From: Candidatus Latescibacterota bacterium
GTDB lineage: Bacteria; Latescibacterota; UBA2968; GCA-2709665
Assembly: GCA_965116875.1 (NCBI GenBank)
Contig: OZ220733.1
Coordinates: 2,272,001-2,336,000 of the forward strand
Direction of reading: 5' to 3'
Length of the DNA stretch: 64,000 bases
Shown: positions 30,768-51,478 of the stretch, piece after piece
Numbering within the stretch: the first letter of the stretch is position 1
How the letters are laid out: each line of letters starts with the position of its first letter
Made by a program: the position numbers and the translations under genes
Notes under the pieces: generated by a model
Told to the model about the DNA's origin: nothing
What the model saw: the letters and a program-made list of their open reading frames with translations, nothing else
The model's database searches: none

Positions 30768-32154
30768 GATTCTGGTTGTGGACGATGAACCGGCGGCGCG
30801 CCTCGGTCTCAAGCGCGCGCTCGCGGCGCTGCCCTGCGAGGTTATCGAAGCCGGAGACGGAACGGCGGCGCTCGAGGAAATCGCGCGCGGCGGTCCCGAT
30901 CTGGTGATCTGCGATATCCAGATGCCCAGAATGGACGGTCTGACGCTCATGAAGCGGCTGGCCGAACAGGAAAACCGGCCTCCTGTCATCATGATGACCG
31001 CGTACGGATCGGAGCGGATCGCCGTGGATGCCATGAAGGCGGGCGCGTACGATTACGTCAGCAAGCCTTACGACGTGGACGAACTTCGCTGCCTCGCACA
31101 AAACGCGCTCGAGACCGTTCGGTTACGGAGGGAAAACGAAACGCTGCGCGACGAGATCCGGCGTCAGTCCGGGTTTGGATTGTTGATCGGCCGCAGCCGC
31201 GCCATGGATCGGGTCTGCGACATGATCGACAAGGTGGCCGGGACCGACGCCACAGTGCTGATAAACGGTGAAAGCGGGACGGGCAAGGAACTTGTGGCGC
31301 GGGCGATTCACGAACAGGGAGAACGAAAGGACCGCCCGTTTGTCGCGGTGAATGCCGCGGCGCTGCCCACCGAGTTGATCGAAAGCGAGCTGTTCGGTCA
31401 TGAGAAGGGCGCATTTACGGGGGCCGCTTCCAGGCGAAAGGGCAAATTCGAGGTCGCGGACGGCGGAACGCTTTTTCTGGATGAAATCGGGGACATGCAC
31501 CTCGAAACCCAGGCGAAGCTGTTGCGCGTGCTTCAGGAGCAGCGGTTCGAGCGGCTGGGCGGCTCGGAGACGGTGGCGGTGGACGTCCGGATGATCAGCG
31601 CCACCAACCGGGACCTTCCCGACGAGATCTCGCGGGGGCGGTTCCGGGAAGACCTCTACTATCGGCTGAAAGTCGTTGATATCTTCCTGCCCCCGCTGCG
31701 CGACCGCCGGGAGGATATTCCCATGCTTGTCCGGCATTTTCTCGAGCAATCCAATCGGAGACATGAAAAGGCGGTAACGGACGTGCCACCGGACGCGATG
31801 AGACTGCTGGCGGCGTATGCCTGGCCGGGGAACGTTCGCGAACTGATGCACGCCGTGGAGCGTGCGGTCATCTTCGCGGAGGATGCGGTCCTCGGCGAAG
31901 ATCTGTTACCCGCGGAAATCCGGGCGGGCGGGGCGGAACCCACGGGCGCCGGAGCGACAGGCTGGTCGGAAGGCGTCATGTTTCAAAACGCAAAACAGGA
32001 GGCCGTGCATTCCTTCGAAGCCGCGTTCATACGGTCGGCGCTGGAGCAGCACCAGGGCAATATGAGCCGCACGGCCCCGGCCATAGGCATGAAACGGCAG
32101 GCGCTTCAGCAGAAAGTCAGGGAACTGGGGATCGATCCGGAAAAATACAGATAA
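30757..32154 (+). CDS. Sigma54-dependent response regulator (NtrC family)
   Basis: ILVVDDE receiver, [30 protein letters not shown]-terminal HTH. Confidence 0.95.
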
Positions 32155-32302
32155 GGGAAGAAGTAAGAAGGTAGAAGGAAGAAGGAAAAGGGCCACACCG
32201 CACACCACCAGTCATCGATACGGCCTGGCGACCGGAGACACATCTCGTGTTTCCGGTTTTTTTTCATTCGTGCCAACGGCGCTTTGCATGCAAGAACCGG
32301 AT

Positions 32303-32389: not shown

Positions 32390-32405
32390 TGGCACGGGGT
32401 TTGCA
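32390..32405 (+). promoter_or_regulatory. Sigma54 (-24/-12) promoter
   Basis: TGGCACGGGGTTTGCA matches TGGCACG-N4-TTGCW consensus. Confidence 0.8.
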
Positions 32406-32434: not shown

Positions 32435-33082
32435 ATGTCCACGCACACATTGACGTTTGCAGCCACCCTTCAGCGCCACACCGCCAACCTGATTACCGCC
32501 TTCCGCGTCGTCTGCCTGTTCATGGCGGCGGCTTTTGCGGTCACCGGAGATACCGTACTGGCCTGGCTTGCGGTTCCCCTGGCGTTCGCGGCGCTGTTGA
32601 TGGACTGGCTGGACGGGTTCGCCGCGCGCCGGCTGGGATGCGAAAGCAAGGTGGGCGGCCTGCTCGACATCGTGGGGGACCGGATCGCGGAGAACGTGTG
32701 GTGGGTGGTGTTCGCGTGGCTGCATCTGGTCCCCCTGTGGGTGCCGCTGGTGGTGCTCAGCAGGGGATTCGTGACGGACGCCATTCGGAGCTGCGCGCTT
32801 TCGCAGGGGCAGACCGCGTTCGGAGAGACGACGATGATGCGGTCGCGCATCGGATACGGTCTGGTCGCCTCCCGCGCAAGCAGGGCGACGTACGGGATTG
32901 CGAAAGTGATCGCGTTTGTCGCGCTGTTCATCCAGAACGCGGTTCAACACTCGACAAGCCTTGCTCCCGGATTGGACTCAGGCGTGGAGTCGGTCGCCCT
33001 CGCGGCGACCTACCTGACCGTCGCCCTCTGCGCGATACGGGGGATTCCCGTGATCACCGCCGCAAAAAGGGTTGTCATCTAA
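32435..33082 (+). CDS. CDP-alcohol phosphatidyltransferase family protein (PgsA-like)
   Basis: ANLITAFR; D.LDG..ARR....S..G..LD..GD signature; AAGGAGG RBS. Confidence 0.9.
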   Translation: MSTHTLTFAATLQRHTANLITAFRVVCLFMAAAFAVTGDTVLAWLAVPLAFAALLMDWLDGFAARRLGCESKVGGLLDIVGDRIAENVWWVVFAWLHLVPLWVPLVVLSRGFVTDAIRSCALSQGQTAFGETTMMRSRIGYGLVASRASRATYGIAKVIAFVALFIQNAVQHSTSLAPGLDSGVESVALAATYLTVALCAIRGIPVITAAKRVVI

Positions 33083-33169
33083 CAGCCCGTCGAAAAAGTC
33101 CATCCGGGCTCGCCTGCAGAGCGACTTTCTCAACGGACTGCTAACGGATCGGTTTTCGAGGAGAACGTG

Positions 33170-34201
33170 ATGAAACAGGAAGCATATATACTGCTCTGGT
33201 TGCTGGGCCTGGCATGCCTTGGCGTGCTGCTTTATCAGCTCGGTGAACCGGAGGTGTGGCGGCACGTGGTGGTGATGGGCTGGGGATACATCCCGATAAT
33301 TGGAATTACCCTGGCAGCCTATGTGAATAACGTCTGTGCATGGCGGGAGAGTTTTGACGGCGGGACCGAAAGGCCTCGAATGAGACCGTTGCTCTGGGTG
33401 AAACTGGTTGGCGAAGCCCTGGGCAACGTGATGCCGGCCTCGCAGATCAGCAAAGAGGTCGCGAAAGTGATGATGCTGAGGGAGCGGATGGGCGTGACCG
33501 CCGGGGTGTCGTCTCTCGTGCTCACCAAGACGGGCGAGATGGTCAGCGGCGTTCTCTTCGTCCTGGGCGGCGTTCTGGCGGGTCTTCACCGCTACGTGTT
33601 TCCTGAGGAAATCCGATGGGCGCTTTTTGCCGCGCTGACAATCGCCGTCGTCGGCACCGTGTTTACCGTGGTGAGACAGCGCCGCGACCCTTTTACCGGG
33701 CTTGTGAACCAGTTGGTGCGGATGCGGATCTCGTTTGTGGCGCGGTACCGCGACCGGGCGGGGGAAATCGATCGGAATCTGGCCGCGTTCTACCGGCTGA
33801 ATGGTTGGCGTCTGGCGGGCCTGCTGGGTATGCACGTGGTGACATGGGGCCTCGGAACGCTTGAGATCTATGTGATCCTTCATGTGCTGGGCGAGCCGAT
33901 GCCGCTGGTTTCGGTCTACCTGTTCCACTCGCTGATGATGGTGATCAATGTCATTTTCGGTTTCGTCCCCTATGGCATGGGGGTCTTCGAAGGCGGACAC
34001 GTGTTCCTCTTCCACCTGATGGGACTGGATCCGGGGACCGGACTGGCCGTGGGCATCGTGCGGAGAATCCGGAAGATCTTCTGGATGCTGTTCGGCCTGC
34101 TGCTGCTTCTGCTGGGTTCCCGCACAATCCGGTTCAGGACGCCGAAGGAGAAGGACGGTCTCGAACGAATGGAAGCCACGGCGTCATTGCACCGCGGGTA
34201 A
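33170..34201 (+). CDS. Lysylphosphatidylglycerol-synthase TM / flippase-like membrane protein
   Basis: Multi-TM; GEALGNVMP...KEVAK and PYGMGVFEGG...GL....VRRIR motifs typical of the LPG_synthase_TM family. Confidence 0.75.
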   Translation: MKQEAYILLWLLGLACLGVLLYQLGEPEVWRHVVVMGWGYIPIIGITLAAYVNNVCAWRESFDGGTERPRMRPLLWVKLVGEALGNVMPASQISKEVAKVMMLRERMGVTAGVSSLVLTKTGEMVSGVLFVLGGVLAGLHRYVFPEEIRWALFAALTIAVVGTVFTVVRQRRDPFTGLVNQLVRMRISFVARYRDRAGEIDRNLAAFYRLNGWRLAGLLGMHVVTWGLGTLEIYVILHVLGEPMPLVSVYLFHSLMMVINVIFGFVPYGMGVFEGGHVFLFHLMGLDPGTGLAVGIVRRIRKIFWMLFGLLLLLLGSRTIRFRTPKEKDGLERMEATASLHRG

Positions 34202-34264: not shown

Positions 34265-35404
34265 GTGAAAATTACGACACTCATCCTGACCGTGACAATC
34301 GTGTTCTGTGCGATACCCCCGTCCGCTGCACAGGCGGCCTCACAATTGCGGGTCCCGCGGCAGGCGGATCCGGCTGTTGAAGCGGCCATTCAGAGGCTCA
34401 GTGAGAAGACGGTTACGGTAATGCCCGGTAAGGACCTTGATCTGAATAAGCTCTCGTCCGGATTGTATACTTACGTGGTGTTCAATTTGAAAGAGACGGA
34501 AAGCGCGGCGATGGGCCGGATTGTCTCCTGCGACTCGAATCGAATCGTCGTCGCGGCGGGTGCAGGGAGTGGATGGGAGATCGCGCTTCACGATATCGTG
34601 GTCCTCGCCGTGGCCGACAACCCGGGCGGTATCGAGCTGTGGCGAATGGCGCGGCGTGAGATGTTGGAGGTCCGGGAGACGGTGATATCCGGCGAAAATC
34701 CCAATCTCGAAGATTTGAGAATCGGATGGCACGCACACGTTGACTATCGATCCTCCGATATCGAGCGCTCCGCCACGGGAGTGATAACGCGTATAGACGC
34801 AGATCATATCGAGATCAAACCAGGGAAAGAGCCGGAAGTCCGGCAGAGAATCCGGAAGGGTAATATCGAGCGCATCTTAATTTTCCGAGGTCGCAGCAAA
34901 TTGGATCGCTGGCGGAAAGCGAGGGAGGCAATGCGCCAACTGCAGGGTCCCAGGGTCCGGTTGAGGGCGCCCTCGATATCGCCGGAATGGATGATCGGTA
35001 GGTTCGCAGGTTCCGTCCGTGACACACTTGTGGTCCTGTCCGAACGCGGTACCGAACGGGTCCACCGTACTCTCGTCAAGGATCTGGAAGTAAGCATGGG
35101 TCGCCGCCGAAACACGATCAAGGGTATGGCCATAGGGGCTCTTGCCGGACTCGGCACGGCATTTCTGTTATATCCTTATAATGTATCTGACGACGATAGA
35201 AGAGGGGAGATTGCAGAAAGGGACCGCGCGGACCGATTCTTCTACGCCGTTCTGGTGGTGCCACTCGCGACAGTCTGTGGCACCCTCGCCGGCGCCAGGA
35301 CGATTGCCGAAAAATGGGTCGAAGTCCCCCCTTCGCGGATCAATCTGAGCATCGCGCCGACAAGGGAAAGAGGACTTCGAGCCGCGGTATCGTTCAACTT
35401 TTAG
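34265..35404 (+). CDS. Exported hypothetical protein, family A (2 repeats + C-terminal module)
   Basis: GGAGG RBS, signal peptide, two ~85-aa repeats, C-terminus LSIAPTRERGLRAAVSFNF. Confidence 0.8.
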   Translation: MKITTLILTVTIVFCAIPPSAAQAASQLRVPRQADPAVEAAIQRLSEKTVTVMPGKDLDLNKLSSGLYTYVVFNLKETESAAMGRIVSCDSNRIVVAAGAGSGWEIALHDIVVLAVADNPGGIELWRMARREMLEVRETVISGENPNLEDLRIGWHAHVDYRSSDIERSATGVITRIDADHIEIKPGKEPEVRQRIRKGNIERILIFRGRSKLDRWRKAREAMRQLQGPRVRLRAPSISPEWMIGRFAGSVRDTLVVLSERGTERVHRTLVKDLEVSMGRRRNTIKGMAIGALAGLGTAFLLYPYNVSDDDRRGEIAERDRADRFFYAVLVVPLATVCGTLAGARTIAEKWVEVPPSRINLSIAPTRERGLRAAVSFNF

Positions 35405-35633
35405 GTGTCTGCCAGGGCGCAGGGGTGCCGCGATTACTGTGTCAATAGACCGTCTACCCAGGTGGCAAGACTGTAACGGAGGGAAGAAGGAAGAAGGAAA
35501 AAGGAAGAAGGAAGAAAAACCGCAAAGGCGGGGTGACGTGGGACGCAGGATGCGAGGGAAATCCGAAACGAAAGGAGCGAGGGAGACCTCTCGCGTCCTG
35601 CGCCTCGAACAAACCGCGTTTTCCTCTTCCTTC
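35405..35633. repeat. Duplicated ~230-bp intergenic element, copy 1 (copy 2 at 39288-39523)
   Basis: Alignable end to end with copy 2; contains GAAGGAA tract and shared GAAAGGAGCGAGGGAGACCTCTCGCGTCCTGCGCC. Confidence 0.85.
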
Positions 35634-35698
35634 GACTCTCGTTCTTCGTGCCTTCGTAGAGCCGGACAATACAGGACAATTGTCAGCGAGGCGGATTC

Positions 35699-37060
35699 AT
35701 GAAGACAAACGCGATGTTGTTGTTCGCAGCGATCTTGACCACGATTGCCGCGCCCTCCGCTTCCTTCGCCGCACAAGGTTCCGAGAGCGGGGGCGTCATT
35801 GTGATGTCGCGCGGAGAGGTGAACCCCACGACGCTCGAGACGGGTATGTACGCATACGCGGCCTACAAGGCGAAGGGAATCGAAGGGTCAGCGTGGGGTC
35901 GAATTGTGCGAATCGAGCCGGACGGTATCGTGATCGAATCCGAGGCCGAGCCATTGGAAACACGGAAAATATCGTTTGGTGACGTTGATATTCTGGCCGT
36001 CGCGAAAGATCGGCTTTCCTTCGAATCGTGGCTGGATCTGAGACTGGCCGCGGAGAAGATCACCGTCATGACCCGCAATGACCTCGACCTGACGAAGCTC
36101 GCGACCGGATCGTACGCGCACGTGGTCTATACGTGGCGGGGTCTCAAGAGGGCGTCATTCGGAAAGGTCCTGGAGGTAGCGCCGCATGGCATTCTGGTCC
36201 TATCCGGGACTGAGCAGACTGAGACGGCGAAGATTGCGGCCGCCGAGATCGACACACTCGCGTTTGCCAATTCCCTGCAGGCCGTGGAGCGTTGGCAGAA
36301 GTGGTCCGAGCGCGGCATCGTCCAAATGTCGCGCTGGGATTTGAATCCTTCGATGCTCGAGGAAGGGCTACACGTTCACGTTGTCTACAATTCCCATGGC
36401 AGAAAACGAAAAGCAGTCGGAAGAATCATAGGCACGTACGGCGATAGAGTTGTGATTCAGTACCGGGTGGGAGGCAAGGCCACGTGGGCGCACCCGGAAA
36501 ATCTGGAAATCGCATATCGCGACGTCGAGACCGTCATTGCGGCCAGGGATCGACAAGACCTCCAGACTTTGGGACGGACGAGGACCTACTTCGGTTACTC
36601 CAATGGGCACAAGGTTGAGGGCCGGGCCCGCGTTGCCATGAAGCTGATTTTCGGGTCGGCACTCGGCGCTGTTACGGCTGCGCCAGCGGCCCTGAGTCAC
36701 TTCCCCGAGCATTATCGTGATGATCCCGGTCCTCCATTGGAAGTTGTTCCTGTAGCCATTCTACATGTCGCCGCAACAGCCTGGGTCATCAACAAAGTGG
36801 ATCCGCTCGCACGATATGGACCGACATTTACAGGCAGTCTGTTAGGGTGCGCTGCTGTTTCCTCCGCGGTTCTGCTGAGTGATCTGGATGGCTACCAGGG
36901 TCCCGCGGTTGCGTGGCTCGGGTATATTGCGGTAACGACACTTGCTGCAACAATTGCCTCCGAGATTTCACGGGAACTGCCTGACGGACCCGGTTTCTCA
37001 GTCGGCCTGGCTCCGCGGAGAAACGGTAGCCTGTCCGCTGTCGCAGCGTATCGATTCTAG
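35699..37060 (+). CDS. Exported hypothetical protein, family A (3 repeats)
   Basis: Signal peptide; three repeats (MSRGEVNP..GMYAYAAY, MTRNDLD..GSYAHVVY, MSRWDLNP..GLHVHVVY); ends SVGLAPRRNGSLSAVAAYRF. Confidence 0.8.
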   Translation: MKTNAMLLFAAILTTIAAPSASFAAQGSESGGVIVMSRGEVNPTTLETGMYAYAAYKAKGIEGSAWGRIVRIEPDGIVIESEAEPLETRKISFGDVDILAVAKDRLSFESWLDLRLAAEKITVMTRNDLDLTKLATGSYAHVVYTWRGLKRASFGKVLEVAPHGILVLSGTEQTETAKIAAAEIDTLAFANSLQAVERWQKWSERGIVQMSRWDLNPSMLEEGLHVHVVYNSHGRKRKAVGRIIGTYGDRVVIQYRVGGKATWAHPENLEIAYRDVETVIAARDRQDLQTLGRTRTYFGYSNGHKVEGRARVAMKLIFGSALGAVTAAPAALSHFPEHYRDDPGPPLEVVPVAILHVAATAWVINKVDPLARYGPTFTGSLLGCAAVSSAVLLSDLDGYQGPAVAWLGYIAVTTLAATIASEISRELPDGPGFSVGLAPRRNGSLSAVAAYRF

Positions 37061-37063
37061 CAA

Positions 37064-37586
37064 ACGAACCGGTCTCGCTTCGCGTCCGCGTGGTCTACAA
37101 ACGTCCCGAAAAGACGGACGCGGTCCCGAACGGATACGCGGCGGACCATGCATGGATGGAGTTCCAAGAGTTTAGGGAGACGTTTTCGGGGCACGGGATG
37201 GAGGGGAAGAGAATGAAGGAAGAAGGAAGAAGGAAGAAGGAAGGAAAGTAAAAGACGGGAGAACAAACCACAGCGGAGATGGCGATCCTGGTTGCACCGG
37301 GATACTCTAGGCGCTGTGAACACGCACCTCCCGATCGAGTTTGCCGGAGAGGGTGTCGCGGGCGTTTTCAAGGTCGTACCGGGTTTGCAGGTTCATCCAG
37401 AACTGAGCTTCCATTGAAAAAAAGCGTCCCAATCTCAAGGCTGTATCCGCAGTAATGCGCCGTTTCCCGTGGATGATTTCATTGATGCGCCGCGGCGGCA
37501 CATTGATTGACTTCGCCAGGTGATACTGACTCATCTGCATCGGCTTGAGGAAATCTTCCAGCAGGATCTCGCCCGGATGAATCGGC
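37064..37586. repeat. Segmental duplication copy 1 (3' end of 39550 gene + purine tract + higA); copy 2 at 40301-40876
   Basis: ACGAACCGGTCTCGCTTC...GGACCATGCATGGATGGAGTT and the higA body align between copies. Confidence 0.88.
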
Positions 37587-37606
37587 GGAAAGTCGCGGGT
37601 CTTCAC
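37307..37606 (-). CDS. higA: HigA family antitoxin (HTH)
   Basis: PIHPGEILLEDFL, RINEIIHGKRRITADTALRL, FWMNLQ. Confidence 0.93.
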   Translation of the reverse strand: MKTRDFPPIHPGEILLEDFLKPMQMSQYHLAKSINVPPRRINEIIHGKRRITADTALRLGRFFSMEAQFWMNLQTRYDLENARDTLSGKLDREVRVHSA

Positions 37607-37615
37607 AATATCTCC

Positions 37616-37897
37616 TTAATGATAATCGACGATCTCGACGTCGTATGCGTCATCGTCTCGCCATACGAAACACACACGCCACTGGTCGTTAATGCGAATG
37701 CTATGCTGCCCTTTACGATCATGGGATAACGCTTCGAGTCGGTTGCCGCGAGGTACGTGGAGCGTTTCAAGGATCGTCGCGGCGTTCAGTTGCTCGAGCT
37801 TGCGTGCGGCCGTTCTTTGAATATCCTGCGGCAATTTCAGGGAAAACCGGCCGCGAAATATCTTCTCGGCTTCCCTGTCCCTGAAGGATCGGATCAC
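37616..37897 (-). CDS. higB: HigB/RelE-family toxin
   Basis: MIRSFRD, GNRLEAL, QHSIRINDQWRVCF, VEIVDYH; upstream of antitoxin. Confidence 0.93.
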   Translation of the reverse strand: MIRSFRDREAEKIFRGRFSLKLPQDIQRTAARKLEQLNAATILETLHVPRGNRLEALSHDRKGQHSIRINDQWRVCFVWRDDDAYDVEIVDYH

Positions 37898-37903
37898 CCA
37901 CTA

Positions 37904-37940
37904 AGCATAACAACCTCTAGTAATAACGTCAAGCGTTATT
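37904..37940 (-). promoter_or_regulatory. higBA promoter with overlapping operator palindrome
   Basis: TTGACG-17 nt-TATGCT on minus strand; AATAACG-TCAAG-CGTTATT (37922-37940) covers the -35. Confidence 0.7.
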
Positions 37941-38051
37941 GTGTGAAAAAACATGGATGAACTCGCAATCGCGACAGGAGCGCTGACTTACTCGGGGATT
38001 TGAATAGACGTTAAATGGCGAATGATGATATCATCTGCCAAAGGGGGGTTT

Positions 38052-39287
38052 ATGAAACCGACCTCGTTCGCTTGGGTTGCAAGTTTTCTGTTGGAGATCC
38101 TTGCCCCATGTATCTCGCATGCCTCCGGACAACTGCAAGTCGAGGAGGCCGGCCGCGTTGCGAGATCGAACACTATCAGCGATAGCGGCAGAAAACAAAC
38201 GCCGGAGGACGACACTGCCGCACACGTCGTGCAACGGGTTTACAGAGGGTTCGACGACAATGATATCATCCCGCTGGCACGGGTGAATGTGGAGCCGAAG
38301 CGCCCAATCGAGGGGTTTGAAGAGGAAGCTGCAATCTACACATCACGGGATGAATTCGACCCGGAGAGGATTAAGAAGGGGTACTATGCCCATGTAGTTT
38401 ACTCAAGGAGAGGTGAGTGGAACACGGCAGCGGGTAAGATCGAGGATACATTCTCGGACAATTTCATAATCAGATCGGTCTCAGGATTTTGGATGAGTTG
38501 GAGGATTGCACATGACGAGATTGAAACGATGGTTACGTATCGAAACCGGCGGAACATCGAGTCGTGGCTACAGACGAGAACGGCCATAGTACGCTTTCAC
38601 GAGACTCTCCTGTATGTTATGACGCGGGACGACATCGACCAGGCAAGGCTGAAGAAGGGCGCCTATGCCACTGTATTTTATAGTACGGAACGCACGATGA
38701 AAACGGCATTTGGCAAGATTGCGGACAAAGACGAGGATCAGATAGAGATCCAATCCAATCCCTTGATGAGATGGAAAATCACAAAAGGCGACATCGACAT
38801 GCTGGTTCTTGGTGAATCAAGGAGCGACATGGATGGATGGTTTCGTGAAAAATATCCCGCAATCCGGGTAAAAACTGGTTCGATATCGAGAAGGCGAATC
38901 ACCGGACGTTTTTTCGCAGTAAAGGGGGACACCCTAATTGTGGTTTCCGATCGCGGTTTTGAACGGATCCATTTATCGTCAATTGACGATTTCGAAGTAA
39001 GCGTAGGACGGTACAGAAACACGGGCAAGGGCATGTTAATCGGCGCCGCATTGGGACTTGCAATCCTTGCGCCGACCGCACTCTCGCAAGATGACGACTA
39101 CGAATTACAGGGGTTGGTAAACTATGGCGTGACAGTGTCTTCCTTATGCGTTTTCATTGGATCTGCGATAGTTGGCTATGCGAAAAAATCCAACAAATGG
39201 GTTGACGTCTCACCAATCCGCCTCAATCTGGGTATCGCGCCCACGCAGAAAGGAGGTGTTCATACCGCGCTGTCTTTCGATTTTTAG
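38052..39287 (+). CDS. Exported hypothetical protein, family A (2 repeats + C-terminal module)
   Basis: Repeats SRDEFDPERIKKGYYAHVVY and MTRDDIDQARLKKGAYATVFY; GRYRNTGKGMLIG; ends LGIAPTQKGGVHTALSFDF. Confidence 0.8.
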   Translation: MKPTSFAWVASFLLEILAPCISHASGQLQVEEAGRVARSNTISDSGRKQTPEDDTAAHVVQRVYRGFDDNDIIPLARVNVEPKRPIEGFEEEAAIYTSRDEFDPERIKKGYYAHVVYSRRGEWNTAAGKIEDTFSDNFIIRSVSGFWMSWRIAHDEIETMVTYRNRRNIESWLQTRTAIVRFHETLLYVMTRDDIDQARLKKGAYATVFYSTERTMKTAFGKIADKDEDQIEIQSNPLMRWKITKGDIDMLVLGESRSDMDGWFREKYPAIRVKTGSISRRRITGRFFAVKGDTLIVVSDRGFERIHLSSIDDFEVSVGRYRNTGKGMLIGAALGLAILAPTALSQDDDYELQGLVNYGVTVSSLCVFIGSAIVGYAKKSNKWVDVSPIRLNLGIAPTQKGGVHTALSFDF

Positions 39288-39523
39288 GTGTCTGCCAAGG
39301 CGCGCGGATGTAGCGATTACTATGACGGCAGATCGTCAATCCATGTGGCAAGACGCTAAAGGCGGGGAGACGGAAGAAGGAAGAAGGAAGAAGGAAGAAC
39401 GAAGAAGGAAGAAAAACGGCAAAGGCGGTTTGACGTGGGACGCGAGGGAAATCCGGAACGAAAGGAGCGAGGGAGACCTCTCGCGTCCTGCGCCCCGAAC
39501 AAACCGCATTTTCCTCTTCCTTC
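39288..39523. repeat. Duplicated ~230-bp intergenic element, copy 2
   Basis: Matches 35405-35633; again starts right at a family A stop codon. Confidence 0.85.
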
Positions 39524-39549
39524 ATCCTTTCATCTATAGGGAGAACGAC

Positions 39550-40575
39550 GTGAGCGAACCGTGTTACTTCATATCCGCCGGAGAACTGCGTGCGATTGTG
39601 GGGGACGACACGGACCACGGCGGGGGACGGGACGAACACAGCGGGGTCTGGTTTCTGACGTCAACAAAGGACAGCCATACGGCGGTATCTCAGGGGAACG
39701 GGATCTTGCTCTTCGGCCACCACAGGGGCACGCGGCCTTCGGTGCGGCGGCTGGACGACACGTCGGTCGAGTTGTTCAAGGAGGCGGGCGATGCGAACAA
39801 CCACGTGGAAACGCGGGGGACTTATCGCCTGGTGGCGCCGCACTACATTGACTACGAGATGACGGCAACCGCCCGTTCCGGGCACCGGCCGCAGGACCGC
39901 ACGTCATTCAGCTGGTGCTGTTACGTAAACTCCCCGGCGGAAAAGGGCATTCACTTTATTGAAAACGGCCTGTGGACGTATTACTTCAATCCGGTACACG
40001 GGCAGGGCGCGATGGTCTTTCCAACCGATCTGGACGCGACCGAACGGGAACCATGGGGCCGCGAGCCGGCCACGGCGTTTCTGGACGGACAGCGGAACTT
40101 CAGTCATTCCGATTCGGGGCGTACCTTCGATTATCCATTCTATTTCGGGATGATCCGCGGGATGATGTTCCAGATTATGGCGGACGATTTTCCCGGCTTC
40201 CGGTTCTTCATCTCGCCGTCGGGCGCGGGGCAGTCGCTGCTGCGTGGGCAGAGCAGTCCGGCGTGGGATTTCGCGTGGGAGACGGATGGGCTCAGGGTGG
40301 ACGAACCGGTCTCGCTTCACGTCCGCGTGGTCTACAGACGTCCCGAAAAGACAGATGCGGTCCCGAACGGGTACGCGGCGGACCATGCATGGATGGAGTT
40401 TCAGAGGTTCAGGGAGACGTTTCCGGTGCGGGGGATGGAGGGGAAAAGGAAAAACGAAGAAGGAAGAACCGGAAAGGCCGGGAAAAGAATGAAGGAAGAA
40501 GGAAAAACGAAGAAGGAAGAACCGGAAAGGCCGGGTGACCTGAGACGGGAAAACAAACCGGAGCGGAGTTGGTGA
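39550..40575 (+). CDS. Hypothetical beta-rich cytoplasmic protein; K/E/G tail read through a purine tract
   Basis: GGGAG RBS before GTG 39550; coding-like composition; ends SPAWDF...VRVVYRR then low-complexity tail. Confidence 0.65.
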   Translation: MSEPCYFISAGELRAIVGDDTDHGGGRDEHSGVWFLTSTKDSHTAVSQGNGILLFGHHRGTRPSVRRLDDTSVELFKEAGDANNHVETRGTYRLVAPHYIDYEMTATARSGHRPQDRTSFSWCCYVNSPAEKGIHFIENGLWTYYFNPVHGQGAMVFPTDLDATEREPWGREPATAFLDGQRNFSHSDSGRTFDYPFYFGMIRGMMFQIMADDFPGFRFFISPSGAGQSLLRGQSSPAWDFAWETDGLRVDEPVSLHVRVVYRRPEKTDAVPNGYAADHAWMEFQRFRETFPVRGMEGKRKNEEGRTGKAGKRMKEEGKTKKEEPERPGDLRRENKPERSW

Positions 40576-40596
40576 TCCAGGCTCCACCGGGTTACT

Positions 40597-40876
40597 CTAG
40601 GCCGTGTGAACACGCACCTCTTGATCGAGCCTTCCAGATAGGGTGTCACGCGCGGCTTCAAGGTCGTACCGGGACTGCAGATTCATCCAGAACTGAGCTT
40701 CCATAGAAAAAAAGCGCCCCAGTCTCAAGGCCGTATCTGCAGTAACGCGCCGTTTTCCGTGTATGATCTCATTGATGCGGCGCGGCGGCACATTGATTGC
40801 CTTCGCCAGGTGATACTGACTCATCTGCTTCGGCTTGAGGAAATCTTCCAGCAGGATCTCGCCCGGATGGATCGGC
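40597..40876 (-). pseudogene. higA: 5'-truncated second copy of higA; higB partner absent
   Basis: Aligns to 37307-37586; homology stops at PIHPG; no start codon between it and an upstream in-frame TGA; internal ATG at 40824. Confidence 0.8.
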
Positions 40877-40942
40877 CTTAAACATGTGCTATGGCAGTGA
40901 CGTCAATACTCACATCGAAAAACTGCAAAAAGGGTATGCTCC

Positions 40943-41500
40943 ATGAAATCAACGTTCCTCATATTGACCGCGTGTCTTATGTCTCAGATCCTTTCGCCAT
41001 GTCACCCGTACGCCTCAGGTCGGCCGCAAGCCCGGAAGTCCGAACGGGTAGACAAAAGAATCGCCGCCTGGAGGCAGGCCATTCAAGGTGTATCGACAAA
41101 GGGCAAAAGAGTTCGTGTCAAAACACTTGCAGGGCCGATTGTTGGCTGGCTTGCGGAGGTGAATCAGGGAAGACTCGCAATTCTGACCAAACACGGTTTA
41201 AACCAGGTGCCGGTTTCTTCGATCAGAAAACTGGAAGTCAGCATTGAACGGCGCAGGAACACCATGGCCGGCATGCTGATCGGTGGGTTGCTGGCAATCG
41301 TGTTTCATCAAGGGCTGTACGTCCCCTGGGAATCGCAATACATCACCTATTTTTCTTTACCCATATTTGCCGCTTTCACTTGTTTCGGCGCTTCCAGAAT
41401 ATCGGACAAATGGGTGGAGATCCCCCCACGGCATCTCCACCTGGGGATAGCGCCAACGCGGCACAGCGGTCTGCGAGCGGCGCTCACGTTTGATTTCTAA
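40943..41500 (+). CDS. Exported hypothetical protein, family A C-terminal module only
   Basis: Signal peptide; IRKLEVSIERRRNTMAGMLIG and DKWVEIPPRHLHLGIAPTRHSGLRAALTFDF match 34265 and 38052 proteins. Confidence 0.78.
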   Translation: MKSTFLILTACLMSQILSPCHPYASGRPQARKSERVDKRIAAWRQAIQGVSTKGKRVRVKTLAGPIVGWLAEVNQGRLAILTKHGLNQVPVSSIRKLEVSIERRRNTMAGMLIGGLLAIVFHQGLYVPWESQYITYFSLPIFAAFTCFGASRISDKWVEIPPRHLHLGIAPTRHSGLRAALTFDF

Positions 41501-41653
41501 GTGCCCTCCGTCGCTTTCCCGGGCGTTGGTGAAAATTACGGTGTACGCAAATGTAGAAGCGTTCTGCAACCGGCCGTGAAAGCGTTCCATTGCTCCTGGG
41601 CAACACCAGATCAACACTTGCAATCGCAATCTTGGAGCGGAAGAAATCGCCGT

Positions 41654-42082
41654 ATGAAGCGCTCTGTCAATATCATTTTGATCTTCACGGTTCTTGCCCA
41701 GACAGTCGGATGTGGCACACAGCGCCATTTTTTTCGCGTGAGCCAGTACCCGGCCCATAGCGAGCAGGCTAGGATCAGACTGGAAATTCAGCGGAAGTTC
41801 AGAGAGTGGTCGGATGTTACAATAGTTGTCCGGGAGAGCGCCCGGAATCGCTTCAAGGAAAAGGTAATTGAATGTACAATCGAAAAAATCGGTACGGAGA
41901 TGCTGACCGTGATTCCCAGGAAGGAGTACTTCGGTGGTGAATCCAGGCGTCTGGCCGTACGTTATTCCGACATCGCAGGTATCGAATACCGCAGTACGGA
42001 CCCCTTGCTTGTCGCCGGGTGTGTCCTGACATCGTGGGTCATACTCCTGATTTACGGTGTCTCGCAAATTGAACTGGACTGA
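41654..42082 (+). CDS. Small lipoprotein, family B
   Basis: MKRSVNIILIFTVLAQTVGC; KVIECTIEKIG, YSDIAGIEYR; C-terminal TM helix. Confidence 0.75.
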   Translation: MKRSVNIILIFTVLAQTVGCGTQRHFFRVSQYPAHSEQARIRLEIQRKFREWSDVTIVVRESARNRFKEKVIECTIEKIGTEMLTVIPRKEYFGGESRRLAVRYSDIAGIEYRSTDPLLVAGCVLTSWVILLIYGVSQIELD

Positions 42083-42149
42083 CCGGATTAATACAGATAG
42101 TCGCCGGACCACGGAGTGCACGAATGAAACCAAAAGGCGGGAGGTATAC

Positions 42150-43409
42150 ATGAAACAGGTCGCATCAGTTCTGATCACAGTCGTTGTACTGGGTGCTTTC
42201 TGGGCCGGTCATTCGATTGCCGCACAACAGGATGCAGGGCTCGAGGTCGAAGGCAACGCATCAGCCGACACGCCCCGTACGGCAACCGCCGCTGAAGACG
42301 GTACAGACGAAGAGCAAACACCAAAGGAGACCGGTGCCGAGCAAGTATCCGAACAGTGGTCACGTGACATGGGCGTTTTGGTAATGTCGCGTGCGGACCT
42401 GGACGCCTCGAAGATTGTCAAGGGGTGGCACGCGCACGTCGTCTACGCATTGGAGGGCAGCCGCGAAACCGCGAACGGGCAGATTATCGGAAGAGACGCG
42501 GATGGCATCGTCGTCAGATCCGGACCGTGGGAATGGCCGAAAATCGCCTATGCGGTGATCGAGACACTCGCCGTCGCGCCGGACCGGCGGACCCTTGAGA
42601 GATGGCGAAAGGGCCGGGAAGCCGCAGATTACGTGACGGTCATGTATCGGAACGACCTCGATCCGTCGCAAATTGCGACAGGCTGGTATGCTCATGTGGT
42701 TTACACGGCGGATGGAAAGGAAAGCGCGGCGACCGGAGAGATTGCGGCGGTGGACTCCAATGGTGTCACAATCGAAACCGCGCCTCCCGTCAGGCGGCGG
42801 GGCTTCGCAAGACGAAGAAGCCTGCAGATTGCGTTCGAGGATATCATCGTGGTCGCCATTGCTGAAAAACGCGAAGCATTGGACGCGTGGCCGAAAACCG
42901 GCCTGGCCACCGGACTCGAAAACCGGAAGAGACCCTGGTGCGAAATCGGCGCGAACCTGCTTTCGGTCTTAATCCTGAAGGGCCAATCCGATGATACCGT
43001 GACGTTGGTCAACGGTGGGGGCGGAATGGCACGACTCATGCCGACCTTTTATATGTCCTCCTTCTTAACTGAGAGAATCTCCTTCGATTTTGGAATGTCC
43101 ATCACGTACCAGGCGACAACGGGCAGTCGCAATACAACCTTGCGGGTCGCACAGGGCGGTTTTGGTTTCTTCTCAAGGGGGTCGGCTTCGGAGTCACCGT
43201 ATTGCAGGATCCTGGCCACGACTCTTGACGGGGATTTTTTCGACTCCCGATTCGGGGGCGGGATCAGCCTGGGCACTCGCCACGTCTTCCGTAACGGCAT
43301 CGCTCTAAGGTACGAGGTGCAATACGTTCGATGGTTGGGGGAAGAATACGAACAGGCAAACCAGATCGGACTCCTCCTGAACGTTGGCGCGGTACTCGGC
43401 GGCAGATAG
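42150..43409 (+). CDS. Exported protein: two family A repeats fused to a putative outer-membrane beta-barrel
   Basis: GGAGG RBS; MSRADLDASKIVKGWHAHVVY and MYRNDLDPSQIATGWYAHVVY repeats; alternating beta-strand C-terminus. Confidence 0.78.
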   Translation: MKQVASVLITVVVLGAFWAGHSIAAQQDAGLEVEGNASADTPRTATAAEDGTDEEQTPKETGAEQVSEQWSRDMGVLVMSRADLDASKIVKGWHAHVVYALEGSRETANGQIIGRDADGIVVRSGPWEWPKIAYAVIETLAVAPDRRTLERWRKGREAADYVTVMYRNDLDPSQIATGWYAHVVYTADGKESAATGEIAAVDSNGVTIETAPPVRRRGFARRRSLQIAFEDIIVVAIAEKREALDAWPKTGLATGLENRKRPWCEIGANLLSVLILKGQSDDTVTLVNGGGGMARLMPTFYMSSFLTERISFDFGMSITYQATTGSRNTTLRVAQGGFGFFSRGSASESPYCRILATTLDGDFFDSRFGGGISLGTRHVFRNGIALRYEVQYVRWLGEEYEQANQIGLLLNVGAVLGGR

Positions 43410-43621: not shown

Positions 43622-44656
43622 ATGAGACGCATTATTCTGGCAATACTCTGCGCGCTGTGCGCCTGTCCGCTGCCACGTCCAGGATACGCCCAGGAGACGC
43701 CAGACCCATTCACGGGATTCAACTTCATGTGGCAGCCTTTCAGCGCCCGCGACGAAGCGCTTGGCGCCACCGGGGTGGGTACCGTCGGAACCGCTATGGC
43801 CCTTATGTACAATCCGGCCGGGATCGCCTTCGTAGAGGGATTGGATGTGGGTTTCACGTTGGCGAACACAAACAGGAAACGCAACGACGTCTGGATCTCA
43901 GAGGAGCGAAGATCCGCGAACCTCGATTTTGATGAAAAGAACTACGTCGTCGGGTTTGCCGTGAATGCGGGGAAGAAATGGTCGCTCGGTCTTTCGGTGC
44001 AGACGTACGATCACGGTTTCGATGATGAAGACACAAGCCAGTATGCCGCATCCGGTGCCTGCGGCTGGAGGATTGCCGATCAGTTCGCGATTGGATCCGC
44101 CCTCAAGCTCATCCACGAGGCATTCACTGGCAGGAATGAAAACGTGTATGCGTTCGACCTGGGCGCGTATTACGTGTCGAAGTCCGGCAGTACAGTCATC
44201 GCGCTGGGCGCGCGGAATTTGACCGGCGGTTTCCTTGGCGAGCCGGCGGATTACCTCGTGCCAAAGCGTATCCGCGCCGGGGTACTCATCGACCTGGTTT
44301 CTGCCGTCGGTCTGGAGCCGTTTCCGCATTACCTGGATTTCGCGGCGGACCTATACAAACCGATCCGTTCGTTCGGACATACCGCGCTGCGCGTTGGAAT
44401 CGAATATACGTATCTGATGCGACGAGCGGAGGGCTATACACTCGGCATATCACTACGGGGAGGACACGCATCGCCGAATCCCATCGGATGGGGTTGCGGC
44501 CTGGAGTTCAGGTCTGCCGGCGGCCGGCGAATCGCCGTGGATTACGCCCGAAGAGGTCTGGGAGTTGGGGGCGATGAGGCCTTCATGCGCGCAATCATCA
44601 ATCAGGCGATCAAGGACGACGTCACGCAGTTGATAAGCATTTCGATTGATATGTAA
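43622..44656 (+). CDS. PorV/PorQ (FadL-like) outer-membrane beta-barrel protein
   Basis: Signal peptide; SARDEALG...ALMYNPAGIAF N-terminal motif; AFDLGAYY, LGARNL, LRVGIEY, VDYA strands. Confidence 0.7.
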   Translation: MRRIILAILCALCACPLPRPGYAQETPDPFTGFNFMWQPFSARDEALGATGVGTVGTAMALMYNPAGIAFVEGLDVGFTLANTNRKRNDVWISEERRSANLDFDEKNYVVGFAVNAGKKWSLGLSVQTYDHGFDDEDTSQYAASGACGWRIADQFAIGSALKLIHEAFTGRNENVYAFDLGAYYVSKSGSTVIALGARNLTGGFLGEPADYLVPKRIRAGVLIDLVSAVGLEPFPHYLDFAADLYKPIRSFGHTALRVGIEYTYLMRRAEGYTLGISLRGGHASPNPIGWGCGLEFRSAGGRRIAVDYARRGLGVGGDEAFMRAIINQAIKDDVTQLISISIDM

Positions 44657-44846: not shown

Positions 44847-44954
44847 GTGGACGGCTGGCAACCCCGTTGCATTGTGAGCCGCACAACACGCACAGAAGTC
44901 CGATTCGATGATCGATCGAGTTGTCATACTTCCACAGATTGGGGAGACTGAAGA

Positions 44955-45395
44955 GTGATACGCGGCATCAATATCGTCCTGATCGCAGCGATTCTGTCAC
45001 ATACGGTCGGTTGCAGTACTTGGAAACCTCTGGCTCGCACGAACGAGGCCTCCGAGGATGACAGACAGACCTATATGCGTGAGCAAGTGAAGGAGAGACT
45101 CAAGGAGGGTATGACTGTAAGAATAACAATCCGCGAGGGTACGCCTGCGCCAATCAGAGGGCAAGTAATCGAGTGCATAATCGAAGAGATAGGACAGGAG
45201 TCGCTGACCTTGATCCCCTTAACGGACCATATCCGCGGTACGGTCAAGAGAGAGTTCGCGTTGCGTTTTGCTGACATTGTGGACATCGAAAATCGTGAAT
45301 TCAATCATGGTCTAACTAACGCAACTATAGGCATGGCGGCTGGAGCTATGTTGGGCTTGGTGTTGTTTGCAATCGGACTCTCAGGGTTAGAGTAA
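44955..45395 (+). CDS. Small lipoprotein, family B
   Basis: SHTVGCSTWKPLA lipobox region; LKEGMTVRITIREGTPAPI.GQVIEC; C-terminal TM helix. Confidence 0.8.
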   Translation: MIRGINIVLIAAILSHTVGCSTWKPLARTNEASEDDRQTYMREQVKERLKEGMTVRITIREGTPAPIRGQVIECIIEEIGQESLTLIPLTDHIRGTVKREFALRFADIVDIENREFNHGLTNATIGMAAGAMLGLVLFAIGLSGLE

Positions 45396-45565: not shown

Positions 45566-45988
45566 ATGATACGCGCCATCAGTATCGTCCTGACCGTAGC
45601 GATTGCGATGCAAACGGTCGGATGCAGTACATGGCAACCTCTGGCCCGCGTGAACGAAATCTCCGTGGAAAAGAGACAGTCTTCCATGCGAGAGCAAGTC
45701 CTGGAGAAACTCAAGGAAGGCATGCGTGTAAGGCTAAGAATTCGGCCCGGAACCCGTGCGCCGATCACGGGTCGAGTATTCGAGTGTGTGATTGAAAGGA
45801 TCGGGCACACGTCGCTGACCGTAATCCCTTACACGTCGTTTGGCTGGGGTGTTGAGATAACGCTGCGTTATGCTGACATTGTCAATATCGAATATCGTTC
45901 CGGTCGTGATTCAACTGGTCTTGTGGGCGGCGGCATAGTGGGTCTGTTGTTGAGTTATTTCCTTATTTTTCTGGTATATCGGGGCTGA
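45566..45988 (+). CDS. Small lipoprotein, family B
   Basis: QTVGCSTWQPLA; LKEGMRVRLRIRPG; YADIVNIEYR; C-terminal TM helix. Confidence 0.8.
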   Translation: MIRAISIVLTVAIAMQTVGCSTWQPLARVNEISVEKRQSSMREQVLEKLKEGMRVRLRIRPGTRAPITGRVFECVIERIGHTSLTVIPYTSFGWGVEITLRYADIVNIEYRSGRDSTGLVGGGIVGLLLSYFLIFLVYRG

Positions 45989-46163: not shown

Positions 46164-46613
46164 ATGATACGCGCCATCAGTATCATCCTGATCGTAGCGA
46201 TTGCGCTGCAGACGGTTGGCTGCAGTACCTGGAAACCCCTGGCTCGGGTGGACGCGGTCCCTGAGGATGACAGGCAATCTTCGATGCGAAAGCAGATTCT
46301 GGGGCGACTTACGGTGGGTATGCGTGCGAGGATAACGGTTCGCGAGGGTGCCCCTGCGCCGATCATTGGTCGAGTTATCGAATGCGTCATCGGAAAAGTC
46401 GGTCCAACGTCGCTGACGGTAGCCGCTTCGGCGCGATTCGTGTTTCCCGATAACTCGAGCCGGAGGGTAACGTTGCGTTATTCAGACATCGAGAGTGTCG
46501 AATACCAGGAATCGAATCGTGGATTTGGCGTTTTCGCGGCAGGCGTTGCAATCGGAACGTTAGCAGGCTTCTACCTCTTGATTCGTGCCATTGCCGGAAT
46601 TACGTTGGACTGA
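46164..46613 (+). CDS. Small lipoprotein, family B
   Basis: QTVGCSTWKPLA; GRVIECVI; YSDIESVEY; C-terminal TM helix. Confidence 0.8.
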   Translation: MIRAISIILIVAIALQTVGCSTWKPLARVDAVPEDDRQSSMRKQILGRLTVGMRARITVREGAPAPIIGRVIECVIGKVGPTSLTVAASARFVFPDNSSRRVTLRYSDIESVEYQESNRGFGVFAAGVAIGTLAGFYLLIRAIAGITLD

Positions 46614-46698: not shown

Positions 46699-47139
46699 AT
46701 GATACGCTCGATCAATATCATCCTGATCGCGGCGATGGTGTTACAGACAGTCGGATGCAGCGCGTGGAAACCCCTGGCTCAGGTCAACCCGAACCCGGCC
46801 GACAACAGGCGAACTTCCATGCGAGAGGAAGTCTTGGGGAAACTCAAGGAAGGAATGGTTGTAAGGATAAGGATCCGCGAGGGCAGCCCTGCGCCGATTG
46901 AGGGTCAGGTTATCGAGTGTGTCATCGAAAAGGTCAGTCTGACATCGCTCACATTAACCCCCTTCGAGGGATATGCCCGCAGTAATGACGGAAATGAGTT
47001 TATGCTGCAATATACCGACATCGTCAGCATTGAATACCGCCAGGTTGGTGATGCAACCGTTCTTGTGGGAGGCGTTGTCGTCGGAGCGATTTTGGGTTTC
47101 TTCGGTATTGCGATTATTGCGTTCAACGAGCAGAAGTAG
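46699..47139 (+). CDS. Small lipoprotein, family B
   Basis: GAGGAGG RBS; QTVGCSAWKPLA; GQVIECVIEK; YTDIVSIEYR; C-terminal TM helix. Confidence 0.8.
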   Translation: MIRSINIILIAAMVLQTVGCSAWKPLAQVNPNPADNRRTSMREEVLGKLKEGMVVRIRIREGSPAPIEGQVIECVIEKVSLTSLTLTPFEGYARSNDGNEFMLQYTDIVSIEYRQVGDATVLVGGVVVGAILGFFGIAIIAFNEQK

Positions 47140-47540
47140 GAAGACTGCCGAACGCAATATCTGAAGTTCCGCCCTTTACGCGCAATGCGACCGCGACCGC
47201 CCCTCGGAATTCCTTCGCGGGTTGTCCTGTTGTCCATTTTCCGAACGATACCGAGGGCTTATCTCGGCGGGCCGCACCTGTCGACCGACACGATACCCCT
47301 TCCCTGACTCTCGCATTGATCCTTGGACGACCGGTGGAGGCCGTTTCGCTTTTGATTTGTCATCCGGCTGATTTCACCGTACCTTCACAGGCAATGATCG
47401 TAATCTAACCGACTTTTCACGAAACTGCCGGCGCACGTGTGATCGCGGAGACTCCCGTTTCCGGGATCAGGTGCGCAAAGTTACGTCCGGCTCGAACGCT
47501 GGAACCGGAGCGTCGTGGCGACAACAACCAGAAGGGGCTT

Positions 47541-48776: not shown

Positions 48777-49009
48777 CCTGCCGGAAGGACCCGCGGCGCT
48801 ACCTGGGACGGGACCCATGTGTTCAGGCAACAACCCGGATTCGGTAATTCAACAATAAATAATGTCAAGCGGAATGCCTCGCCCGTGTGGAACAGAAGCT
48901 CTCGGGTCGGATTTCAGTTAGCGACCGGTAAGGAAAGGCGCTGCCGGCAGCGAAACTTGATAAGTTTATGCGCTGCGCAAGACCCGGATTGGAATGGAAA
49001 GCGATTGAT

Positions 49010-51145: not shown

Positions 51146-51245
51146 TCGTTGCGCCCGTACGCAACACGACCGTTATGGACAGCATGAATGCCATATCGTC
51201 CGAGACGCGTCGTGCAATGATCCGGCTCTCACCGATGTATCGAAT

Positions 51246-51401: not shown

Positions 51402-51478
51402 CAATCACATTCCGCCGCAGATGCCAGGAGACCATCCAACTCGTTTATTTTCAGTAAATTGAAATTTTCATTATCTGT

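Follow-up and report, generated by a model that had tools for sequence, protein, structure and literature searches.

We analyzed a 64,000-nt stretch of DNA from a Candidatus Latescibacterota bacterium (assembly GCA_965116875.1, contig OZ220733.1, positions 2,272,001 to 2,336,000; hereafter, the window) and focused on five genes encoding proteins A to E, which share an approximately 85-aa repeat, a small set of C-terminal anchors, or both (Table 1). In our favored explanation, which we hold to be about evenly balanced between right and wrong, these proteins represent a Sec-exported, outer-membrane-anchored family that hangs chains of small barrels in the periplasm by means of three interchangeable anchors and forms part of an envelope-remodeling island. 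The A-type anchor of A, C, and D consists of a small barrel, an R-x-R-N collar, two GxxxGxxxG helices with an acidic loop, a Trp, and an F-x-F hairpin; the B-type anchor of B follows the same logic with four helices; and the E-type anchor of E is a predicted OmpA/OmpX-like eight-stranded barrel. On the model of SlyB and YfgH, hairpins of glycine-zipper helices would enter the outer membrane from its periplasmic side and pack laterally into oligomers. The terminal hairpin would aid targeting or lock subunits together, and the small barrels would serve as periplasmic spacer or binding modules. The data below show the repeats, their fold class, the types of anchor, the charge asymmetry, and the synteny; that the helical anchors lie in the outer membrane, that they oligomerize, and that the family has a lipid-related role are inferences.

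A first-pass annotation had reported the repeat 2, 3, 2, 0, and 2 times in five open reading frames (ORFs) with signal peptides, four of them ending in a short hairpin with a last Phe and the fifth in a barrel-like tail. Our motif count reproduced these numbers: the core motif G.[YH]..[VA]..[YF] is present in 2, 3, 2, 0, and 2 copies in A, B, C, D, and E, respectively, at a spacing of 86 to 93 residues. All five ORFs lie on the + strand and begin with signal peptide-like sequences, and the GTG start of A agrees with a database protein of identical sequence that begins at the same residue. The nine 85-aa copies align at 21 to 41% pairwise identity, and their profile found no match at an E value of ≤10 in 1,000 shuffled versions of the five proteins. 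Across the 5.45-Mb single-contig genome, the same profile detected these nine copies and nothing else. The repeat is real and well above chance. A second shared element is a C-terminal module common to A, C, and D (146 columns, 37 to 44% identity), whose profile found three copies in the whole genome. The hairpin [FL].[VLI][GS][IL]AP....G....A...F.F forms the C-terminal end of A, B, C, and D; for E, the prediction is a tail of exactly eight strands.

We modeled A and E with AlphaFold2 (AF2). The model of A, made from a 26-sequence alignment, had a mean predicted local distance difference test (pLDDT) score of 65.4, with the repeats at about 80, and the model of E, made from a 6-sequence alignment, had a mean of 68.6, with the repeats at 80 to 90. 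Each repeat is predicted to contain six strands (one short and five longer) and a helix of 15 residues, which would amount to an Sm/SH3-like barrel plus a basic, Trp-containing spacer helix. Foldseek searches with the repeat returned tandem Tudor domains (SETDB1, E value of 2.4e-4) and Spt5 KOW arrays. VIA-align, a structure search independent of Foldseek, returned GerQ (Z 7.3), RimP (7afi_X, Z 7.0; 5gl6_B, Z 6.8, root mean square deviation of 1.9 over 67 residues; 8bh7_A, Z 5.8), and Hfq, LSm, and MscS-type beta domains at Z of about 6. In sequence searches, Pfam RimP_C (PF17384) matched 8 of the 31 true family members scanned at an E value of ≤0.01, three of them above its 26.3-bit cutoff (36.2, 29.7, and 26.6 bits); among the window proteins, B reached 12.6 bits against that cutoff and the others had no match. 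Because the VIA-align matches converge and RimP_C agrees with them, we assign the repeat to a single fold class. As the PDB contains no relative by sequence, the repeat is a sequence family of its own, new within the Sm/SH3-like small-barrel fold that had been proposed for it earlier; its nearest neighbors are the RimP C-terminal domain, Hfq, and GerQ. The condition that the first-pass annotation had named as refuting its idea, a match of the repeat to a well-characterized domain, does not apply.

The repeat had also been called unrecognized, and searches with its profile bear this out: it is a rare, uncatalogued sequence family of known fold class. No Pfam or NCBIfam model reaches its cutoff on any of the five proteins. 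Among 1.84 billion cluster representatives, the repeat profile (HMMER) matched 95 at an E value of ≤1e-3, 68 at ≤1e-10, and 30 at ≤1e-30; at least six of the weakest of the 95 are unrelated large Ig/SprB/CARDB repeat proteins, i.e., noise. Against PDB sequences, the repeat profile had no match at an E value of ≤10, and the module profile had chance-level matches only (E value of ≥0.096; R67 dihydrofolate reductase, SH3-like barrel, amyloid-beta GxxxG segment). Full-length A has 36 relatives in a collection of 5.8 billion clusters, all nameless or labeled "hypothetical protein" of a Gemmatimonadota bacterium. A scan of public genome records with an alignment of A, C, and D (A2) as the query showed that the module is encoded in public metagenome-assembled genomes labeled Candidatus Latescibacterota bacterium or Gemmatimonadota bacterium. 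The ESM Atlas gave no usable match for the repeat region; the D-like module resembles unnamed hypothetical-protein clusters there, commonest in Acidobacteriota (score 0.94), which we treat as a lead only. Literature on Latescibacteria, sponges, and the outer membrane contained nothing on the family, in a search that did not include the repeat motif itself. Judged by Pfam, NCBIfam, PDB, and the names given by the sources ("hypothetical protein"), the family appears to be uncatalogued.

Independent copies of the repeat are present in 34 of 40 related genomes, with E values down to 5e-34. At the order level, the repeat is present in 35 of 41 genomes (the window's own included), and each of the 35 has between 1 and 19 matches, mostly clustered. 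At the phylum level, the module was detected in 57 of 168 genomes: it is common in three families (19/21 genomes in f1, 26/31 in f2, and 2/3 in f3), present in 9 of 76 genomes of a fourth (f4), where the matches are weak and mostly lack the hairpin, and not found in any of the 36 genomes of ten further families. We read the family as lineage-restricted. Arrays among the relatives range from one to nine or more genes, and this range, together with that of the repeat matches per genome, marks a fast-evolving envelope part of an uncultured lineage. Among public sequencing runs, one holds 0.99 of the words and another, labeled sponge metagenome, holds 0.23, and the others have small shares; we draw no habitat conclusion from these values.

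The order of elements within the A-type module was read from a 16-member alignment (A4). The module opens with a small barrel and a basic R-x-R-N collar, continues with a G..IG...G helix, a polar loop, and another Gly-rich helix, and closes with an invariant Trp and a hairpin that contains an invariant Pro and ends in Phe. The G..IG...G columns show little or no variation, GxxxGxxxG is conserved, and the hydrophobic segments, 17 to 30 residues long, are fully hydrophobic. The small barrel, the third in A, lies between the repeats and the helices, is present in A, C, and D, and is not recognizably related to the repeat in sequence (probability of 7% in hhalign). B lacks it and has four hydrophobic segments in place of two. 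In the AF2 model of E, the strands of the tail have pLDDT mostly between 75 and 89, and Foldseek matched the tail with a probability of 1.00 to 1bxw, 1p4t, 1qj9, 3qra, and 2f1v, members of the OmpA, NspA, Ail, OmpX, and OmpW families (OmpA 1bxw, E value of 2.8e-4, TMt 0.51; NspA 1p4t, TMt 0.64). Pfam OMP_b-brl reached an E value of only 0.069 on E.

We then surveyed the anchors of 179 distinct sequences with the repeat, a set that was drawn from searches and loci and includes fragments. A complete A-type module is present in 98, preceded by 1, 2, 3, or 4 repeats in 30, 60, 7, and 1 of them, respectively. The B-type tail was detected by phmmer in 9, and by eye about 16 more among the unclassified sequences end in the B-type motif; the E-type tail is present in 4. 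The remaining 68 are truncated or of other kinds, among them a form of 304 residues that has three repeats but no anchor. This form (L005:1877-2791, L037:369-1283, and P0038) ends in ..IIFLHLAH and is possibly soluble and periplasmic. Because A-, B-, and E-type tails recur on repeat-bearing relatives, the anchors are truly interchangeable, as the first-pass annotation had proposed in calling them swappable.

A wider search with the A4 alignment found 104 proteins, mostly about 160 to 200 residues long, 100 of them new. At an E value of ≤0.01, 33 of these 100 wider relatives match Gly-zipper_Omp, 23 match Gly-zipper_YMGG, 10 match the two-transmembrane (2TM) glycine zipper family, and 10 match RimP_C. 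Glycine-zipper Pfam matches of the close relatives are subthreshold, with E values of 0.01 to 0.06. By these sequence matches, the Gly-rich helices appear to belong to the outer-membrane glycine-zipper class and not to a passenger-export device.

Three lines of evidence bear on the side of the membrane from which the anchors insert. In barrels of the OmpA/OmpX type, both termini are periplasmic, and the repeats of E are thus placed under the outer membrane. Of 117 distinct A-type tails, 111 have exactly two hydrophobic segments, and we counted charges in these: the 11 positions that precede helix 1 total 304 K+R and 63 D+E, and the loop between the helices totals 200 K+R and 429 D+E. The four-helix tail of B shows the same alternation by inspection. 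In addition, exactly two cysteines are present in the interhelix loop of 33 of the 100 wider family members, a pair that would fit an oxidizing compartment. We considered whether the hydrophobic segments could instead be ordinary inner-membrane helices, in which case the family would consist of bitopic or polytopic inner-membrane proteins with periplasmic barrels. The length and strong hydrophobicity of the segments, which AF2 models as helices, are suited to such an arrangement. According to the positive-inside rule for inner-membrane topology, basic residues flank the cytoplasmic side; with an exported N terminus, the loop, which is acidic on balance, would end up on the cytoplasmic side and the basic collar on the periplasmic side, and an inner-membrane hairpin would break the rule for this reason, in both A-type and B-type tails. 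The loop cysteine pairs, the outer-membrane barrel of the sister architecture E, and the matches of the relatives to outer-membrane glycine-zipper families also argue against it, and we judge an inner-membrane location very improbable. Given the charge asymmetry, the loop cysteine pairs, and the E barrel, we favor anchors that enter the outer membrane from its periplasmic face. Most likely, the repeats sit under the outer membrane and not on the cell surface; the surface display suggested in the first-pass annotation is unlikely, since E carries the same repeats on an OmpA/OmpX-like barrel with periplasmic termini.

We next considered the last strand of the terminal hairpin. Among the 117 A-type tails, F occupies position -1 in 114 and position -3 in 98, L or V occupies position -5 in 106, and L occupies position -9 in 99; Ala is present at -6 in 103, where the beta-signal motif has Gly, and Gly at -10 in 111. 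One source gives the beta-signal as GXX-aromatic-X-aromatic (PMC13067283), and the aromatic-x-aromatic part of it is present at the end of the hairpin. Within the genome, eight of the nine PorV/PorQ-family barrels that score above cutoff end in ..R-F-S-x-x-G-x-F, which is why we liken the hairpin to the last hairpin of local outer-membrane barrels; the terminal Phe that had been read as beta-signal-like fits this picture. Candidate roles for the hairpin are targeting to the beta-barrel assembly machinery (BAM), formation of an oligomeric barrel, and docking to a partner.

If the second of these roles applied, BAM would assemble the hairpins of several subunits into one oligomeric beta-barrel, with two strands from each, for surface display or as a pore; this model goes back to the first-pass annotation. 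The alternating hydrophobic positions of the terminal strand, the amphipathic character of both hairpin strands, the shared ending with the PorV-family barrels, and an autotransporter-like order of N-terminal passenger and C-terminal anchor are all in line with this idea. Against it, the repeats of E sit on an eight-stranded barrel with periplasmic termini and no export pore, fully hydrophobic glycine-zipper helices would be out of place in a hydrophilic pore, searches of Pfam and NCBIfam found no autotransporter or secretion family in A to E, and the monomer model contains no confident hairpin. We therefore regard an oligomeric barrel as unlikely.

The third role has an analogue in type IX secretion, in which PorV/PorQ/PorP-type barrels hold partner proteins. 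The hairpin might dock by strand addition onto the island's PorV/PorQ-like barrel or onto an E-type barrel, and the family would then consist of periplasmic accessories. Of 25 loci, 6 have a PorV-like gene no more than 4 kb away. In the window and in loci L042, L043, L044, and L046, the array ends with an E-type gene and, after it, a PorV-like gene, and both a PorV-like gene and an E-type tail lie inside the array of L052. The genome encodes nine PorV/PorQ paralogues above cutoff, the divergent one in the window, which falls short of the 90-bit cutoff of NF033709 that the nine pass, and one SprA-like translocon, from which we conclude that it has type IX secretion parts. However, for many arrays the DNA examined contains no PorV-like gene, there is a single barrel gene to as many as nine or more family genes in an array, and A to E contain no type IX sorting domain (no match to Por_Secre_tail or the type B C-terminal domain at an E value of ≤1). 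Docking of this kind seems improbable to us.

The genes upstream of A suggest a setting for the family. A gene for an NtrC-type sigma-54-dependent response regulator, which also adjoins the island in L010, L014, and L022, is followed by a terminator-like hairpin and by the sigma-54 promoter consensus TGGCACGGGGTTTGCA. This site is the only match without mismatches among 30 in the window at ≤2 mismatches. At ≤2 mismatches, such sites are not above chance (30 versus a mean of 24.3; 13 of 100 shuffles reach 30), and of the sigma-54-like sites in the window we used the exact match alone. The two genes downstream of it encode a PgsA-like CDP-alcohol phosphatidyltransferase (58.6 bits with NCBIfam pgsA, below the cutoff of that model) and a flippase-like membrane protein (45.2 bits with TIGR00374 versus a cutoff of 43.2; 136.7 bits with HpnL, below its cutoff); protein A begins 64 nt after the latter. 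Orthologues of the flippase-like protein (≥59% identity) are present in 28 of the 40 relatives, and at least 24 of these 28 have a family gene within 4 kb. We checked synteny in 16 regions of 20 kb, picked from the 28 for large contigs. A family gene lies directly downstream of the flippase-like gene in 13 regions, downstream with a leucine-rich-repeat (LRR) gene between in one, and directly upstream in one; one region has no family gene. Since a sigma-54 promoter and a conserved lipid-synthase/flippase-like pair precede the family genes, we read the locus as a putative inducible envelope-remodeling island.

A bolder version of this reading links the anchor to the lipid genes. The A-type and B-type tails would be a hybrid alpha/beta outer-membrane anchor of a kind so far undescribed: BAM would recognize the F-x-F hairpin, and the glycine-zipper helices would then zip the subunits into a ring. 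The ring would corral a special lipid made and flipped by the products of the two cotranscribed genes, forming a sigma-54-inducible, protein-fenced lipid domain in the outer membrane, while the tandem barrels would act as a periplasmic skirt, either setting spacing or gripping the cell wall. We consider this version doubtful.

Several observations weigh against our favored explanation of an outer-membrane zipper family. In the model of A, the helices and the hairpin have pLDDT of 29 to 57 (hairpin, 29 to 34), and every VIA-align Z score is below 8, in the range that the tool itself calls middling. No window protein reaches the Pfam cutoff for a glycine-zipper family or RimP_C, and the lipobox, the defining feature of SlyB-type proteins, is absent from A to E; a nonlipidated helical hairpin would need some other route to the outer membrane. 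The loop cysteine pair is present in only 5 of the 111 close A-type tails. Both E, which ends in LGGR, and the adjoining PorV-like barrel lack a terminal Phe. The family is linked to the lipid genes by gene order alone. Finally, all relatives are metagenome-assembled genomes, and as kin they are not independent.

Table 1. Features of the window around genes A to E (positions are those of the window)
Feature	Positions	Strand	Remarks
NtrC-type sigma-54-dependent response regulator	30757-32154	+	NCBIfam AtoC/NtrC-like, E 1.8e-151, below equivalog cutoffs
Terminator-like hairpin after regulator gene	32230-32258	+	12-bp stem plus T run
Sigma-54 promoter consensus TGGCACGGGGTTTGCA	32390-32405	+	Exact match, 30 nt before next gene
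CDP-alcohol phosphatidyltransferase (PgsA-like)	32435-33082	+	PF01066, E 1.9e-16, 61.3 bits versus cutoff of 22
Flippase-like membrane protein (LPG_synthase_TM/HpnL-like)	33167-34201	+	PF03706, 83.7 bits versus cutoff of 33.4
Protein A	34265-35404	+	GTG start, 379 aa; signal peptide, 2 repeats, A-type anchor
Repeat A1	34412-34666	+	
Repeat A2	34676-34930	+	
Third small barrel of A	34952-35110	+	Model residues 230-282; AF2 strands; VIA-align: Sm-like Rpp29 1tsf_A, Z 6.9
Two hydrophobic glycine-zipper helices of A	35114-35299	+	Residues 284-302 and 316-345; acidic loop between
KW motif and terminal amphipathic hairpin of A	35303-35401	+	Ends SFNF; pLDDT <50 in monomer model
Protein B	35699-37060	+	453 aa; signal peptide, 3 repeats, B-type anchor
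Repeat B1	35795-36049	+	
Repeat B2	36059-36313	+	
Repeat B3	36317-36571	+	
B-type anchor	36584-37057	+	Four hydrophobic segments, then hairpin FSVGLAPRRNGSLSAVAAYRF
HigA-HigB toxin-antitoxin pair between B and C	37307-37897	-	Pfam HTH_3, HigB-like_toxin
Protein C	38052-39287	+	411 aa; signal peptide, 2 repeats, A-type anchor
Repeat C1	38331-38585	+	
Repeat C2	38610-38864	+	
A-type module of C	38856-39284	+	
ORF of about 338 residues	39559-40575	+	GA-rich tracts on either side
Protein D	40943-41500	+	185 aa; signal peptide, A-type module only, 0 repeats
Small lipoprotein F	41654-42082	+	Lipobox TVGC, small barrel, C-terminal hydrophobic segment
Protein E	42150-43409	+	419 aa; signal peptide, acidic linker, 2 repeats, E-type anchor
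Repeat E1	42375-42629	+	
Repeat E2	42633-42887	+	
OmpA/OmpX-like eight-stranded barrel of E	42939-43397	+	Model residues 264-416; AF2 and Foldseek
Divergent PorV/PorQ-like outer-membrane barrel	43622-44656	+	NF033709, 47.7 bits versus cutoff of 90, positions 2-180/326
Tandem small lipoproteins G, H, I, J	44955-45395, 45566-45988, 46164-46613, 46699-47139	+	
Secreted internalin-like LRR protein	47439-48776	+	Pfam LRR_4, E 8e-60

Small lipoproteins accompany the family. F to J are five paralogues of 140 to 150 residues with 34 to 54% identity, each combining a TVGC lipobox with a small barrel and, at the C terminus, a Gly-rich hydrophobic segment, and similar genes recur in L042, L044, and L045. 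No Pfam family matches F to J. Compared with the A-type module, lipoproteins of this type gave an hhalign probability of 78% and an E value of 1.7e-5 over 78 columns, and they are probably distant relatives of the module's barrel and zipper. The pairing of a lipid anchor at one end with a hydrophobic helix at the other is unusual. Upstream of G by about 85 nt lies a one-mismatch sigma-54-like site (TGGCAACCCCGTTGCA, positions 44856-44871, + strand), which may mark another sigma-54 unit of the island. Genes for internalin-like LRR proteins are a recurrent feature, found in the window, L044, L051, and L052, and the islands of L051, L052, L019, and L031 contain much larger LRR genes. Farther downstream (48968-56753, + strand), ORF translations indicate several proteins of the PAS/response-regulator type, along with two further activators that depend on sigma-54 (51490-53472 and 55638-56753).

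The island in the window has been enlarged by segmental duplication and by insertion of HigBA. The segment at 37040-37620, after B, is 86% identical to that at 40280-40945, after the ORF at 39559-40575; the copy after B includes a remnant of the 3' end of that ORF, and the duplicated block repeats the higA region but not higB. A second duplication, at 35307-35633 after A, is 75 to 93% identical to 39190-39523 after C. The ORF itself had no Pfam or NCBIfam match, and in L040 and L043 relatives of it lie within the arrays. A, B, C, and this ORF are each followed by a tract of the heptamer GAAGGAA (35479-35546, 37215-37282, 39362-39443, and 40481-40548). With about 50 sites in the genome and 94 pattern matches at ≤2 mismatches, the tract resembles a dispersed intergenic element; the built-in control says nothing here, as the pattern reads the same in reverse. 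No Rfam family was found within the window.

Among known systems, the repeats share fold class and similar size with the RimP C-terminal SH3-like domain and the Sm/Hfq/LSm barrels. RimP and Hfq, however, act in the cytoplasm as RNA or ribosome factors; the repeats here are exported, tandem, and equipped with a spacer helix, and the repeat proteins lack the RimP N-terminal domain. The tail of E is predicted to be eight-stranded like OmpA, OmpX, NspA, and Ail (Foldseek TMt 0.5 to 0.64), but its barrel is C-terminal, with the periplasmic domains on the N-terminal side, opposite to the order in OmpA, and it does not end in an aromatic residue. With trimeric autotransporters and other oligomeric few-strand barrels, the family has in common a modular N-terminal part and a short C-terminal beta element ending in Phe; it differs in contributing two strands per subunit versus four, in having hydrophobic instead of pore-lining helices, and in matching no such family.

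The closest known proteins are the outer-membrane glycine-zipper proteins of the SlyB/YfgH type. SlyB and YfgH have lately been recognized as organizers of lipid and protein domains under envelope stress, and to our knowledge glycine-zipper outer-membrane proteins have hardly been studied outside enterobacteria. Two sources describe SlyB, YfgH, OsmB, and YiaD as 2TM glycine-zipper outer-membrane lipoproteins for which rings have been proposed or shown, and describe SlyB-type zippers as inserting from the periplasmic side and forming ring-shaped transmembrane oligomers (bioRxiv 10.64898/2025.12.22.696046, PMC13067283). Like these proteins, A-type family members are exported envelope proteins with two adjacent hydrophobic GxxxG helices beside a small beta domain, they lie in an envelope-stress-type context, and their wider relatives match the corresponding Pfam families (PF05433, PF13488, and PF13441; 33, 23, and 10 of 100). 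Unlike them, A to E have type I signal peptides with A-x-A-type cleavage sites and no lipobox (we do not read ..APC/..SPC in C and D as one), a feature that neighbors F to J do have; the order is reversed, with the barrel before the zipper; and a C-terminal beta-signal-like hairpin and up to four N-terminal barrels are added. Because the lipid anchor is absent and the cutoffs of the hidden Markov models are not reached in the window, we file the family as working like SlyB/YfgH and not as a member of that group. It would represent the same zipper in a different build, without a lipid anchor and with a beta-signal-like hairpin and chains of an uncatalogued small barrel; its zipper anchor exchanges freely with an ordinary eight-stranded barrel, and it adjoins lipid-synthesis genes and a sigma-54 switch. 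The family thus offers a natural test case for how helical segments reach the outer membrane and for whether nonbarrel proteins can borrow BAM signals.

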